From positions 83,172 through 147,171 of IMG/VR virus record IMGVR_UViG_3300045996_002451: DNA of 64,000 bases. One strand, 5' to 3'. Below, one piece after another: positions 668-58,429 of the stretch. The DNA is from a virus. Its lineage: Duplodnaviria; Heunggongvirae; Uroviricota; Caudoviricetes. The first letter of the stretch is position 1, and every line of letters starts with the position of its first letter. Both the position numbers and the translations under genes were made by a program. Under the pieces are notes generated by a model. The model was not told the origin of the DNA. It worked only from the letters and a program-made list of their open reading frames with translations, and made no database searches.

Positions 668-683
668 TGTTACCCGTGTAACC
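668..683. promoter_or_regulatory. Motif A copy (TGTTACCCGTGTAACC)
   Basis: Exact 14-mer GTTACCCGTGTAAC at 669-682, upstream of the LmbU/ParB-like gene. Confidence 0.8.
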
Positions 684-688
684 CTACG

Positions 689-704
689 GTTCGACGCGTC
701 ATAC
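689..704. promoter_or_regulatory. Motif B copy (GTTCGACGCGTCATAC; 2 mismatches to GTATGACGCGTCATAC)
   Basis: 5 bp downstream of motif A; matches perfect palindromes at 27613 and 43728. Confidence 0.65.
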
Positions 705-733
705 AAAAGTGTATCAGGCGTGAACGAAAGGGG

Positions 734-739
734 TATACT
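734..739 (+). promoter_or_regulatory. Possible -10 element (TATACT)
   Basis: TATACT about 120 bp upstream of the 860 start; no convincing -35 seen. Confidence 0.3.
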
Positions 740-859
740 GTAAGTGATCGAGATTGAGCGAGAGCCGAGCCGCCCTCCCTCGGAAGACCTCAATCGGGTT
801 AGCGGAAGACTTCCCACTTCCGCACCCAAGAAGCGTTTGTTACTTTTGGAGGAACTGAG

Positions 860-55140: not shown

Positions 55141-55679
55141 CGATACTGATTCAGGATGGCCAGTCCGCGTCGCTCGCAGATCGCCTCTCTTTCCAGCCCC
55201 GGTTGCCAGTAGTTGTTACGGAACTGCTTGATGTGTCCGAACTCATGCGCAGTGGATGCGAGCAGCCCCTCTTGCCAGGTACGACAGGTAATGAGGGGTG
55301 AGTTCGGTCCGCCGTAAGCCATACGACGTAGCTTTCCGTTTATCTGGTAACGTGCCCAGTTGGTGGTAGGGAAACGTTTGGGGTCCAGGGCAACCGTTAC
55401 AAACAGGCTGTAACCAGGTGCTCCGTTTGGAGCGACCCATTTGGGTACAGCGTAGAACGTACGCCCCTGGATCCCCCATCCGGTCTTGACCCAATTGGGC
55501 ATCGGTTTCACGTGGACCAGCACTCCCGTGCCGTCCATCTGGCCGACGCCTGCTTTGACGAGTTGCTCGACCTCCCGGTCCGGGAAGGCGGTGTAGTTGA
55601 CGACAGTGAGTGGCCGGTCCGCCTGGACCGGAGTGTGGAAAAGAAGCAGGGCTAACGCCCCATAGAACAACGTTTTCAT
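55095..55679 (-). CDS. Secreted HEXXH zinc-metallopeptidase-like protein
   Basis: GGAG RBS, signal peptide MKTLFYGALALLLFHTPVQA, STAHEFGHIKQ zincin motif; the only credible minus-strand gene. Confidence 0.65.
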   Translation of the reverse strand: MKTLFYGALALLLFHTPVQADRPLTVVNYTAFPDREVEQLVKAGVGQMDGTGVLVHVKPMPNWVKTGWGIQGRTFYAVPKWVAPNGAPGYSLFVTVALDPKRFPTTNWARYQINGKLRRMAYGGPNSPLITCRTWQEGLLASTAHEFGHIKQFRNNYWQPGLEREAICERRGLAILNQYRQDWPVRRLAASSSK

Positions 55680-55702
55680 CTCAGTCTCCGACAGCAACTT
55701 GC

Positions 55703-55718
55703 TGTTACACGGGTAACG
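55703..55718. promoter_or_regulatory. Motif A copy (TGTTACACGGGTAACG) in the 44-bp gap between divergent genes
   Basis: Exact 14-mer 55704-55717. Confidence 0.85.
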
Positions 55719-55723
55719 CCCTT

Positions 55724-58429
55724 ATGGCCCTTAACGCCTTCGAACTCTTGCACCGTGGCACCCAACCGTTGAGCAAAGCACTTGTAGCGGCGACGGTCCT
55801 CGGAGGTGTTTTCGCGTCTGGCGCTCAGGCGGCGTCACCGTCGATTAGTAAAGACCCGTTGGTACGCAAGTTCGCGCTCTCTGCCGCGCGGGACAACGCG
55901 AACAAGCCAGGAGGTATCAGTTTCATCGGTACGCCGGACTCGCCCGAGCCTATGTCCCGCGTGTTGAAAAATGAAAAGGATACCATTTGGGGGCATAGTT
56001 ACCAAGAGTGGCTGGAAGGCCTCAAGCATCCGTCACGGGCGCAAGATCGTACCGTAATCCTGAATACCCACGGTGGGGAGGGGTTAGGTATTGCCGGACC
56101 CGAAGGGGGTTCGTGGATCAAGCGGACCGGTGCGGGTCCTAAAGACTGGTCCATGCGCGGAGGTCCTTCAGTCAAGCCCACACACTGGGATGTGGCCTCG
56201 GTACCTCGCTTCCTGAGAGATCTGCCTGAGCACTACGATCTGGCGTTGCTCAGTATGTGTAACCCGGGCGCCGTGTTGCAGCGCGGAGACATCAGTGTCG
56301 AGATGGCACAGAGTCGGATGCGTAAGTTCGGTTTTGCGGCACCCGGACGCACCGTAACCATCCACAACTCCAAAGAGACCCTACACTTCGAGAGCGGTAA
56401 GCTCGTGAAGCGGGTACCGTACAACGCGCCAGCACGGAAGTCCCCGCTGGCACAGGTGATGGTACCAAACCGAAACGGTATCGCCTACGCGAGTTGGCAT
56501 AACGAAACCCGCGCAGGTATCGATCTCCTGGCCCTTTCTGGCTCCTATAGCCTCAAGGGTAGTAGTCAGATCGTGGCATCCCGCTTGACCCCCACCGCTA
56601 AAGAGGTCAAACAGGGGATGCAGACGCTGCGCTGGGCGGAAGAGGAAATCGCGCGCAAGCCTGCAACCGTTGCCGCCAACGCCCTTGCTAAGGCTGCGGC
56701 AAAGACCCACGTCCCGGTTAAGGGAACGGGTAACCCCGTAGGCGGTATCCTGGCCTTACTGGGACTAGGCGGAGCCGGAGCCGGAGTGGTTGGGGTGCGC
56801 CGCCGTCGACGCGGTCAGTCCGAGTCCGCCGAACACGCTCCCATTTTCCAGGCTACCGAACCGGTCGGACAGATCTCGGGCACTGTGGTGAACTCCGCGG
56901 AAGAAGTCTTCGGACAGGAAGTAGCCCAAGCCGAGAAGCACTTTGGTATGGTCCGCATCTCGGAGATCGAGAACCGCGCCGTGCGTACTGGCGTACCGGT
57001 CGGTAACGGTACTACCGCCCATACCCCTCGCCGCGGCAAGATGCTCAGTGCGAACTATCAGGTACAGGCGCTGAAGTCCGGGCCCATGGGTGCCTTCGTA
57101 GGACTCCACCAGATCGAGAACCGCATCCCGCGTCCGCCGCACCGCGTCCAACTGGGGGATCCCAACTGGATGCCGAAAGTAGGTAACTCTCGCGTAGGAG
57201 GCAGCCACGCCCCGTTCACCTTACCGGAGTGGGCTAAGCCAACCGAACCACTGCACCTGGACTGGTCTCCGAAGAAGCCGACCGGTTTTGTAAAGGTCTC
57301 GGATGTCCTGCCGCAGAGTCCGTTGCGCACGCACGTATTCCAAGGGGTAGAGCCGATCGGAACTGCCGCCTCCGAATTGACGGCACACCACCAGGGCTGG
57401 TCACAACTAATCCAGGACGGGGAACGACTTACCGAGCAGTTCAATGAACTGAAAACCCTAACGCCGCCCAAGCCGGTTTCGACGAAGCCAACTGTGGGGC
57501 GGTCTTACGGGTTCGTGGGACTTTCGCAGGTGGGACACGTGTCTTCGCTCGAGGACGAACTGTTCCACGCCGCGAAGAACAAAACCCCGATCCCTATCGG
57601 CAAAAGAGATCGACTCTACTTCCAGTACCGACAGCTCGCAGACCGGATGGGGATCGCTGCCATCGTCCAGGAAGCCAAGGACGGAAGTTGGAGTATCCAC
57701 GTGGACGCTTCCGCAGGGGATCGCCTTACACCCCATTGGAGCCGCGTACGAGACCGCAACCGAGCGCAAAGCAAGAGCACGTCCGGTACAGTACAAGTTT
57801 CAGAGGTGCTGCCGCAAAGTCCGCTTAAAGCACACGCGCTGCCTAACAGCCCGGCTGTAGAAGCGCAAGCCAAGCAGAACGCTGCCCCGGTCACACGTTC
57901 CGTAGCCCAAGCCGCGGTACCGAACCCCGCCCCGGCTGTTACCCGTGTAACCGAAACCAAAGCAGAAAAGGCCACGTCCACCCAGACCACCCCGCAGAAG
58001 AACCAAGGAAAAGCCGTGCGGGAACCGGCTGCCCCGCGTGCTGCAGGCGGAACCATTCCTATCCAGACCCCGAGTGTTGCCGAGGCCGCGGTCAAGGCGG
58101 CGGAAGAAAACCTGGAGCACAAGTTCAATCCCCGTAGGATGCGCAGTGCCCTGGTCCTTGGCGGGGTCATCTTCGGGGCGTTTGCCGTGGGGGGTAAACT
58201 ACTAGACGGCTCGGGTGACGACCAGCCTAAACCTCGCGCGCACCCGCATCCGGCGCCCCACTCCGGTCAGCCGGACGCGCACGCCCAGTCCCACACCGTC
58301 CAAAGCGTACAGGGCGGTACCCCAACGATTCAGCATCAAGTCAACATTCACGATGCTCCCTTTGACATGGGTCAGGTAGACGAGATGTTCTCCAACCACC
58401 TGGCTTATGGACACGCGTTCAACAGCTAA
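55724..58429 (+). CDS. ~900-aa mosaic protein with putative clan-CD (caspase-like) cysteine protease domain and low-complexity linkers
   Basis: ATG 55724; signal-like ALVAATVLGGVFASGAQA; VILNTHGG...LALLSMCNPG His-Gly/Cys pattern; two TM-like segments. Confidence 0.55.
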   Translation: MALNAFELLHRGTQPLSKALVAATVLGGVFASGAQAASPSISKDPLVRKFALSAARDNANKPGGISFIGTPDSPEPMSRVLKNEKDTIWGHSYQEWLEGLKHPSRAQDRTVILNTHGGEGLGIAGPEGGSWIKRTGAGPKDWSMRGGPSVKPTHWDVASVPRFLRDLPEHYDLALLSMCNPGAVLQRGDISVEMAQSRMRKFGFAAPGRTVTIHNSKETLHFESGKLVKRVPYNAPARKSPLAQVMVPNRNGIAYASWHNETRAGIDLLALSGSYSLKGSSQIVASRLTPTAKEVKQGMQTLRWAEEEIARKPATVAANALAKAAAKTHVPVKGTGNPVGGILALLGLGGAGAGVVGVRRRRRGQSESAEHAPIFQATEPVGQISGTVVNSAEEVFGQEVAQAEKHFGMVRISEIENRAVRTGVPVGNGTTAHTPRRGKMLSANYQVQALKSGPMGAFVGLHQIENRIPRPPHRVQLGDPNWMPKVGNSRVGGSHAPFTLPEWAKPTEPLHLDWSPKKPTGFVKVSDVLPQSPLRTHVFQGVEPIGTAASELTAHHQGWSQLIQDGERLTEQFNELKTLTPPKPVSTKPTVGRSYGFVGLSQVGHVSSLEDELFHAAKNKTPIPIGKRDRLYFQYRQLADRMGIAAIVQEAKDGSWSIHVDASAGDRLTPHWSRVRDRNRAQSKSTSGTVQVSEVLPQSPLKAHALPNSPAVEAQAKQNAAPVTRSVAQAAVPNPAPAVTRVTETKAEKATSTQTTPQKNQGKAVREPAAPRAAGGTIPIQTPSVAEAAVKAAEENLEHKFNPRRMRSALVLGGVIFGAFAVGGKLLDGSGDDQPKPRAHPHPAPHSGQPDAHAQSHTVQSVQGGTPTIQHQVNIHDAPFDMGQVDEMFSNHLAYGHAFNS
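57937..57952. promoter_or_regulatory. Motif A copy (TGTTACCCGTGTAACC) inside a low-complexity coding linker
   Basis: Exact 14-mer 57938-57951. Confidence 0.75.

Follow-up and report, generated by a model that had tools for sequence, protein, structure and literature searches.

An evenly spaced parS-like palindrome in an uncultured jumbo phage as a putative docking array for a ParB-fold protein

Arrays of sites for ParB-family proteins are known from chromosomes (parS and the Noc-binding site, NBS) and from plasmids (the KorB operators, OB). The 60-kb plasmid RK2 carries 12 OB sites, roughly one in every 5 kb, Bacillus subtilis has about 70 NBS in 4.2 Mb, and the phage-plasmid N15 scatters SopB centromere repeats among its phage genes. 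KorB is a ParB-family CTPase clamp that slides to promoters, where its partner KorA locks it, and it acts both at a distance and at its own promoter (PMC11790492). Noc binds the parS-like NBS at many scattered genome sites for a whole-genome task and not to regulate genes (PMC7383237, PMC8429893). Here we analyze a 14-bp palindrome, GTTACACGGGTAAC, termed motif A, in a 64,000-nt stretch of phage DNA (the window) that corresponds to bases 83172-147171 of the 211,171-bp IMG/VR record IMGVR_UViG_3300045996_002451 (98% complete, ~60% GC). The record, referred to as G000, is the source phage, an uncultured jumbo myovirus whose genes include terminase, sheath and capsid-type ones; it encodes about 40 tRNAs, one tmRNA and three proteins longer than 1,900 residues. 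Coordinates marked as genome positions refer to the whole 211-kb record and all others to the window.

Like the KorB operators of the IncP plasmid RK2, motif A is a dispersed short palindrome found about once every 5 kb over a mobile replicon and mostly in intergenic DNA. As in RK2, a ParB CTPase is present in G000 together with a second small DNA-binding protein (HTH240, the product of the 860-1582 gene) and a second palindrome (motif B). The phage array differs from the KorB operators in that it counts 44 sites and is significantly even, and in that relatives retain it without a ParB CTPase and mostly in genes. Unlike KorB, the candidate binder HTH240 has no CTPase domain and has a zinc ribbon, and G000 was found to have neither a ParA nor an association of the sites with promoters.

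Motif A was scored against published parS and NBS consensus sequences (PMC7383237). It matches the parS core at 11 of 14 positions, differing at positions 4, 9 and 11 of the 14-mer, and the 16-bp parS TGTTNCACGTGAAACA at 13 of 16 when the T and A flanks are counted, which are themselves present in only about half of the sites. With chromosomal ParABS the phage system shares this match, a true ParB in G000 and a parA-parB pair in its close relative L120. Chromosomal parS sites, however, are few in number and lie together near the origin or parAB, on a replicon that encodes both ParB and ParA, whereas the 44 phage sites are spread evenly over 211 kb, G000 has a ParB without a ParA, and phages that lack ParB still carry the motif. 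The likeness to the Noc system of B. subtilis lies in the many scattered 14-16-bp parS-like sites and in an NBS-type C at position 6, present in one half-site of motif A only. The systems differ in that only 9 of the 14 positions agree with the NBS consensus ATTTCCCGGGAAAT, that the sites belong to a phage and that their density is about ten times higher than that of NBS. Noc itself is a CTPase that carries a membrane-targeting helix.

To our knowledge, no phage array has been described that is statistically even, covers the whole genome and persists in relatives inside genes and without a ParB CTPase. The explanation that we favor, with moderate confidence, is that motif A forms an evenly spaced, genome-wide docking array for a phage ParB-fold dimer, with HTH240 as the first candidate and ParB possibly acting there too, in the manner of KorB or Noc and not as a set of gene switches. 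We infer the binding at motif A, the identity of the binder and the purpose of the array from the observations that follow.

Copies, spacing and placement of motif A

A motif A site was defined as a sequence with at most one mismatch to the 14-mer GTTACACGGGTAAC or with an exact copy of its 10-bp core, TACACGGGTA. G000 has 44 such sites in 211 kb. The exact 14-mer occurs seven times in the window, where 0 copies are expected, and 21 times in the genome, in both orientations; none appeared in 100 shuffles of the window sequence. When up to two mismatches were allowed, the window contained 13 distinct sites, equal to 20 matches over both strands as compared to 0.22 matches expected. The core has 42 exact genome copies and is the most over-represented 10-mer in the genome. 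The original prediction, made from the window alone, had listed seven exact and four one-mismatch copies in both orientations, eight of them intergenic or overlapping a stop codon and three coding, and all eleven were found as described. Two coding sites (14803 and 19258) and a weak site (34600) are additional. The sites in the window are as follows.

669-682, minus strand: exact motif A; intergenic; the 860-1582 gene begins 177 nt downstream, and a motif B half-site follows at 694-704
6670-6683, minus strand: exact motif A; intergenic, just upstream of the large terminase (TerL) gene, which starts at 6687 or 6744
12859-12872, plus strand: motif A with one mismatch, GTTACACGGGTAAT; coding, V-T-R-V-I
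14803-14816, plus strand: exact 10-bp core with two arm mismatches; coding, V-Y-T-G-T
19258-19271, plus strand: exact 10-bp core, AGTACACGGGTACT; coding, E-Y-T-G-T
21513-21526, plus strand: motif A with one mismatch (GGTAC arm); intergenic, 4 nt past a stop codon and with an ATG directly after it
27597-27610, plus strand: exact motif A; 2 nt past a stop codon, with motif B 2 nt further on at 27613-27628
34600: weak motif A
35334-35347, plus strand: exact motif A; 3 nt past a stop codon, the next ATG 20 nt on
40722-40735, plus strand: motif A with one mismatch; in the middle of a 6.2-kb giant gene, G-Y-T-G-N
43675-43688, plus strand: exact motif A; includes the TAA stop of the giant gene 37439-43687
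49254-49267, minus strand: motif A with one mismatch; 2 nt past a stop codon and 5 nt ahead of the ATG of a gene for a 1,955-residue protein
55704-55717, plus strand: exact motif A; 6 nt ahead of the ATG at 55724
57938-57951, minus strand: exact motif A; coding, V-T-R-V-T
694-704 (half-site), 12997-13012, 27613-27628 and 43728-43743: motif B, GTATGACGCGTCATAC, the second palindrome

The consensus of the motif A sites reads G-T/g-T-A-C-A-C-G-G-G-T-A-A/c/t-C, with weak flanks (T at 52% and A at 45% of sites). Among all genomic TAC-N4-GTA sites the centre was ACGG in 42, ACGT in 4 and CCGG in 0, and the conserved asymmetric 4-bp centre that had been proposed for the motif is therefore real. Some sites have a variant arm (GGTAC, GTATC or GTACC), and in these the opposite arm never compensates. 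In a post hoc comparison the orientation of the centre was non-random: eight of eight intergenic sites in the left block point the same way and ten consecutive sites on the right side alternate, patterns that span genome positions 4.7-56.5 kb and 158.8-198 kb.

The 44 genome sites are separated by 4.7 kb on average and nowhere by less than 1,423 bp, and the coefficient of variation (CV) of the gaps is 0.49. Under uniform placement the CV is 0.98, and a value of 0.49 was reached in none of 20,000 simulations. The spacing of the intergenic sites also stood out against that of random gene junctions (P = 1e-4), and the 13 window sites show a similar pattern, with a mean gap of 4.8 kb and a CV of 0.41. 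The sites had been described as quasi-periodic; they are evenly spaced but follow no strict period.

Thirty-two of the 44 sites lie in the 12% of the genome that is intergenic, a share that rests on the calls of a simple codon-bias gene caller, with approximate start codons, for genes beyond the list of open reading frames (ORFs). The coding sites occupy gaps left by long genes, and the site at 40722 breaks up a gap that would otherwise exceed 8 kb. Nine of the 12 coding sites share a single frame and orientation, x-TAC-ACG-GGT-AAC, which is read as Y-T-G-N/T/I in unrelated proteins and uses codons that suit a high third-position GC content (GC3). This frame preference suggests a DNA motif that is placed where coding permits. 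Because nine of 12 coding sites use this codon-friendly frame and because the sites of relatives are mostly within genes, the concentration at junctions is probably a coding constraint of a high-GC genome and not a functional part of the array.

The intergenic placement also bears on the explanation that motif A is a transcription signal, whether a promoter, a gene-specific operator or an operon-boundary terminator. Intergenic sites often lie 1-11 nt past a stop codon and 0-25 nt ahead of a start codon, and the start-proximal intergenic sites of the left arm (five clear cases) precede a Shine-Dalgarno sequence, with the ATG 10-12 nt on. The phage encodes its own sigma factors, and in the loci L279 and L280 of related phages a site is found 5 bp upstream of TATACT or TATAAT. 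However, both orientations occur at equivalent positions (past a stop and ahead of a start codon), none of the 44 G000 sites has a TA[TC]A[AC]T hexamer within 45 nt downstream, and no conserved flanks were found around motif A in G000. The sites do not cluster, they occur in mid-gene where gaps would otherwise run long, and in the relatives G003, G004 and G005 most of them are coding (counts are given below). A role as transcription signals is therefore quite improbable in our judgment.

A sigma-70-type promoter in particular was rejected, given the compact 14-bp dyad, its presence in both orientations, the 0 of 44 sites with a -10-like hexamer and the lack of a conserved flank. A compact dyad without a conserved flank is unlike a two-part promoter, and for this reason the phage sigma factors were rejected as readers of motif A. 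One of them is encoded at the edge of the window.

1-592, plus strand: 3' part of a sigma-70-family gene, covering regions 2, 3 and 4; the gene begins 124 nt ahead of the window

The product of this gene is not thought to read motif A. A second sigma-70-family factor, with a match to region 4 and to extracytoplasmic function (ECF)-like factors, is encoded at genome 193816-194460 and is kept in the relatives G003, G004, G006 and G007.

An RNA or single-stranded DNA hairpin, for example in processing or translational control, is the explanation that we find hardest to credit. A 5-bp stem with a 4-nt loop is possible, and many sites lie just ahead of start codons, where they cover the ribosome-binding region. 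The RNA hairpin of motif A, however, reaches only -1.8 to -2.4 kcal/mol, folds in context no better than shuffled sequence and is omitted from the best fold of one context. Both loop versions occur, an Rfam search with motif A gave no match, and the copies in relatives are mostly coding. The weak hairpin and the uncompensated arm variants therefore point to two protein half-sites, not to a stem.

The motif family in related phages

A megablast search with 20 kb of the phage against 50,697 phage records returned no close relative, and the large terminase of G000 is only ~31% identical to those of Moorella and Bacillus jumbo phages. An exact-peptide scan of IMG/VR with TerL alone gave no match, and a scan of IMG/VR with the bare 14-mer gave isolated chance matches only. 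Distant relatives (TerL 35-38% identical) were drawn from IMG/VR via a TerL profile; L120, L279, L280 and L281 are known from loci, not whole records. The closest relative, L120, encodes a ParB 60% identical to that of G000, with parA-parB at 9130-11101, and has eight cores in 21 kb as well as motif B. Four whole records carry variants of the motif.

G004 (211 kb, 36% GC, 98% complete): GTTACA-YR-TGTAAC; 25 exact GTTAC-N4-GTAAC and 0 with another spacer; 33 of 47 sites coding; CV 0.90-0.96, not significant
G003 (213 kb, 46% GC): GTTACA-YR-TGTAAC; 10 exact; 14 of 16 sites coding; core sites with CV 0.57, P = 0.0015
G011 (143 kb, 35% GC): TACA-NN-TGTA; 33 copies as compared to 4.6 expected; CV 1.2, not significant
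G005 (217 kb, 45% GC): AGTACAG(N0-1)CTGTACT; 33 sites, 30 of 33 coding; mean gap 6.7 kb, CV 0.52, P = 5e-5

No match to ParB_N or HTH_ParB was found in G003, G004, G005 or G011. TACA-N2-TGTA is therefore taken as the shared core of the family, and the ACGG centre is found only in the ParB-carrying G000 and L120. The motif A family was not found in 12 more distant relatives (G006-G010, G012-G016, G018 and G019). The position of the site directly before TerL is conserved in G000, L280 and L124.

Conservation in related phages, on which the idea of an array depended, is thus borne out by L120, G003, G004, G005 and G011. In G005 the spacing is even with nearly all sites in genes, and a gene-boundary role is therefore excluded. 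That two phages whose motifs are different variants both space their sites evenly argues for selection on coverage of the whole molecule. Such selection would point to an unknown genome-handling step of jumbo phages, such as compaction, positioning, self-DNA marking or long-range silencing. These results support the view that motif A is a distributed, evenly spaced double-stranded DNA array and not an operon-specific operator.

The relatives also qualify the likeness to parS, from which their motifs diverge further than motif A of G000 does. The original prediction read motif A as a parS half joined to an NBS-like half. The parS likeness is real (11 of 14), but it is lineage-specific, and the relatives have the symmetric GTTACA-YR-TGTAAC or AGTACAG(N)CTGTACT. 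The related suggestion that the phage hijacks host ParB or Noc by means of motif A draws on the near-universal presence of parS in bacteria, on the likeness of motif A to it and on the symmetric variant GTTACACGTGTAAC, which departs from the parS core at one symmetric position pair. The centres (ATAT, ACAT or G-C) and AGTACA arms that the relatives mostly use, however, differ from parS at contacted positions, and the GC content of the phages ranges from 36 to 60%, hence different hosts. The phages bring their own ParB-type DNA-binding proteins, and no enrichment of the core was seen in the 9.1-Mb bacterial genome with the nearest ParB homologue. Because the relatives' commonest centres depart from parS and the hosts differ, we regard recruitment of a host protein as very improbable.

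Candidate binders: HTH240 and the phage ParB

The original prediction had named the 860-1582 product as a possible phage ParB-type binder, and by its predicted ParB/Noc fold and its distribution across phages, which tracks that of the motif, it is the best candidate.

860-1582, plus strand: HTH240 gene; 240-residue product with a predicted ParB/Noc-type DNA-binding fold, a zinc ribbon and an acidic tail

HTH240 combines helices at its N terminus, which dimerise in the model, with a ParB/Noc-type domain, a zf-FCS/TRASH-like zinc ribbon (CxxC...CxxxC) and the acidic tail. No match to the CTP-binding ParB_N domain was found in HTH240 or at its locus. At E <= 0.001 the family counts 5,403 cluster representatives, and four of its cysteines are nearly invariant; among 60 members, HTH_ParB was matched weakly in eight and DUF1016_N in ten, and the zf-FCS/TRASH matches are weak. 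This uncharacterised family would gain a testable role and a candidate DNA site.

A PDB sequence search with HTH240 returned nothing relevant, and matches came from the fold search alone. The AlphaFold model has a predicted local distance difference test (pLDDT) score of 87, and its top 31 PDB fold matches are the DNA-binding domains of ParB-parS, Noc-NBS, Spo0J and SopB, with probabilities of 0.85-1.00 and root-mean-square deviations (rmsd) of 2.0-4.3 A (SopB up to 4.3) over ~100-120 residues. For chromosomal ParB, Noc and Spo0J chains the probabilities were 0.98-1.00 and the rmsd 2.0-3.3 A. The near-invariant R99 of HTH240 (in G-H-L-R-A-L) aligns by eye with R204 in the 'GHARAL' of ParB, a residue that contacts DNA (PMC7383237). 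Modeled in two copies, HTH240 forms a symmetric dimer via its N-terminal helices with a score of 0.73, as compared to 0.00 for the best of three controls; in calibration, the mark for this score was reached by 21 of 30 same-chain pairs and by 0 of 23 solved single chains. The three dimer runs have at least 91% of contacts in common and a partner pLDDT of at least 74. The modeling supports the pairing of HTH240 as a symmetric dimer.

Each of the five whole records that carry the motif (G000, G003 with two copies, G004, G005 and G011) encodes HTH240 or a homologue, and none was found in the motif-less G006-G010 and G012-G016. Syntenic homologues, 36-37% identical, occur in L279, L280 and L281, and two of these three loci have clear motif sites. 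More distant homologues are found in L276-L278, on contigs too short or too divergent to reveal an array. A motif site lies upstream of the HTH240 gene not only in G000 but also in L279 and L280 (~260-280 nt), and within 600 bp of the gene in G003 (both copies) and G004. The site in L279 and L280 is followed, after the hexamer TATACT or TATAAT mentioned above, by a motif B-like palindrome, and this layout looks like an autoregulated promoter.

Motif B has about 17 sites genome-wide in G000, almost always intergenic and sometimes 2-50 nt from motif A. It is kept in L120, L279 and L280, beside a TATAMT hexamer upstream of the HTH240 gene.

Several observations weigh against HTH240 as the binder of motif A or against an even array as its general outcome. 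The HTH_ParB match of HTH240 in Pfam scores 18.2 bits, below the curated cut-off of 22.6, and the Foldseek E-values are only ~7e-3. The co-occurrence of HTH240 with the motif is confounded by phylogeny; the same presence/absence pattern is shown by the 144-residue product of 5620-6054, the 263-residue product of 47626-48417, a RecU-like resolvase, a GroES-like protein and an 83-residue protein. HTH240 has a near-identical recognition helix in G004 and G005, yet the motifs of these phages differ in two outer bases. Even spacing is absent in G004 and G011, and a symmetric dimer leaves the strictly conserved asymmetric centre of G000 unexplained. Finally, motif B adjoins the HTH240 gene too and could be the true site of the protein.

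The shared distribution leaves room for another conserved factor at motif A, with the ParB-type link coincidental. Such a factor could be an unknown or small-terminase-like DNA-binding protein, a nickase or recombinase with site specificity, or a type II topoisomerase of the host that cuts through the 4-bp centre. Several unannotated proteins match the presence/absence pattern of the motif, two 5-6-bp arms about a variable 4-bp centre resemble enzyme cleavage sites, and even spacing would fit topological or packaging domains. On the other hand, G005 accepts both 14-bp and 15-bp versions of the motif, which favors flexible paired domains over a fixed catalytic stagger, and the retention of a site ahead of the HTH240 gene speaks for autoregulation by its product. 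No GyrA/ParC-type topoisomerase is encoded in the five motif-bearing phages, and a phage-encoded type II topoisomerase was therefore rejected as the actor. Taken jointly, these other factors are an unlikely explanation.

The second candidate binder is a true ParB, encoded elsewhere in G000.

Genome 69141-70151 (L111:9141-10151), plus strand, outside the window: canonical ParB/Noc-family CTPase gene; first gene of a plus-strand block, at the divergent switch between gene blocks

The product matches Pfam ParB_N (5e-16) and HTH_ParB (1.5e-11), and its PDB sequence matches are led by Noc, Spo0J and ParB (4e-20 to 7e-17), with Noc the best. It keeps the QPR, GERRLRA (GERRxRA) and REDL boxes. Its recognition helix is without K171, R173 and N178 of canonical ParB. 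The phage ParBs have the helix G-I-S-(P/H)-x-Y-A-R-Q, the high-GC subclade of HTH240 has G-V-S-W-S-V-A-R-Q, and bacterial relatives have L-S-R-D-Y-V-K-R; the phage helix thus departs from its bacterial relatives exactly where it resembles HTH240. Just after the recognition helix, 13 of 23 residues are common to HTH240 and the phage ParB. These sequence likenesses suggest a captured ParB that was tuned to pre-existing sites, which would offer a naturally occurring example of the apparent convergence of a ParB CTPase on the sites of another protein.

The nearest bacterial relative of the phage ParB (L122; contig 16, 30.7-38.3 kb, of the 9.1-Mb genome G001) is 40% identical, with no adjacent ParA and an adjoining sigma-factor gene. 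Three of the four genomic copies of GGTACGCGTACC in G001, which has the same GGTAC arm, lie within 8 kb of this gene and are probably the bacterial homologue's own parS-like cluster. At L123:6989-7252, ~3 kb ahead of a further bacterial ParB homologue (41% identity), a 14-bp palindrome, GGCGAT-NN-ATCGCC, occurs four times in 260 bp.

The canonical ParB was at first favored as the sole binder and was later demoted, when the motif family was found in ParB-less relatives. On that account motif A is a set of parS-like loading sites for the ParB CTPase alone, acting as a KorB-like sliding clamp, and HTH240 binds elsewhere, for example at motif B. In its favor, G000 has a true ParB with intact CTP-binding boxes and sites that match parS at 11 of 14 (13 of 16), a motif A site stands 57 nt ahead of the parB start codon, and the ACGG centre is confined to the ParB-carrying phages. 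The spacing of ~5 kb would suit the reach of a sliding clamp, KorB acting up to 1.5 kb (PMC11790492), and palindromes with the GGTAC arm cluster around the gene of the bacterial homologue. Against this, the motif family, and even its regular spacing, occurs in the ParB-less G003, G004, G005 and G011, of which G004 is 98% complete, so that the ParB CTPase is not required. There is no ParA in G000, and the recognition helix is without the three residues named above. We hold ParB as the only binder to be a doubtful proposition, with a low probability.

In the favored docking-array explanation, an HTH240 dimer would bind double-stranded motif A, one monomer contacting each GTTACA-type arm. A separately acquired ParB CTPase with a similar helix (G-I/V-S-x-x-x-A-R-Q) may be loaded at these sites too, a possible reason why ACGG is fixed in this lineage only. 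The array would act on the genome as a whole, through marking, compaction, positioning or long-range control of the KorB/Noc type, and a few sites, including those before the HTH240 gene and parB, are probably autoregulatory operators as well. A broader version is tentative, and we rate it well short of even: that this jumbo-phage clade marks its own genome with an even array of one site per 5-7 kb, in or outside genes, read by a family of CTPase-less, ParB-domain zinc-ribbon dimers, and that one lineage later captured and re-tuned a ParB clamp and so fixed ACGG. If true, the array would be a genome-wide organiser that serves, for example, in self-DNA marking, compaction, positioning or protection.

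Neighboring features

The tmRNA gene and the ~40 tRNA genes, one of them tRNA-SeC-like, lie in a single array at genome 71.4-80.7 kb, and motif A directly follows tRNA genes at genome 75491 and 80559.

The minus-strand ORF 55095-55679, the sole minus-strand call kept in the window, overlaps the end of the gene for the 1,955-residue protein and is probably spurious. Directly upstream of the TerL gene, the 182-residue ORF 6044-6592 shows weak similarity to the terminase ATPase N-terminus (Pfam 0.0045; PHROG 6.5e-7) and may be a duplicated or split terminase piece.

The giant protein of 49273-55140 (1,955 residues) has a DnaQ-like exonuclease segment and finds marginal matches only in relatives (5e-4 in G004 and G005). 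The giant protein of 37439-43687 (2,082 residues) has a Cas4/PD-(D/E)xK-like nuclease segment and, together with the third giant protein, whose gene starts at 58456, is conserved in all relatives examined.

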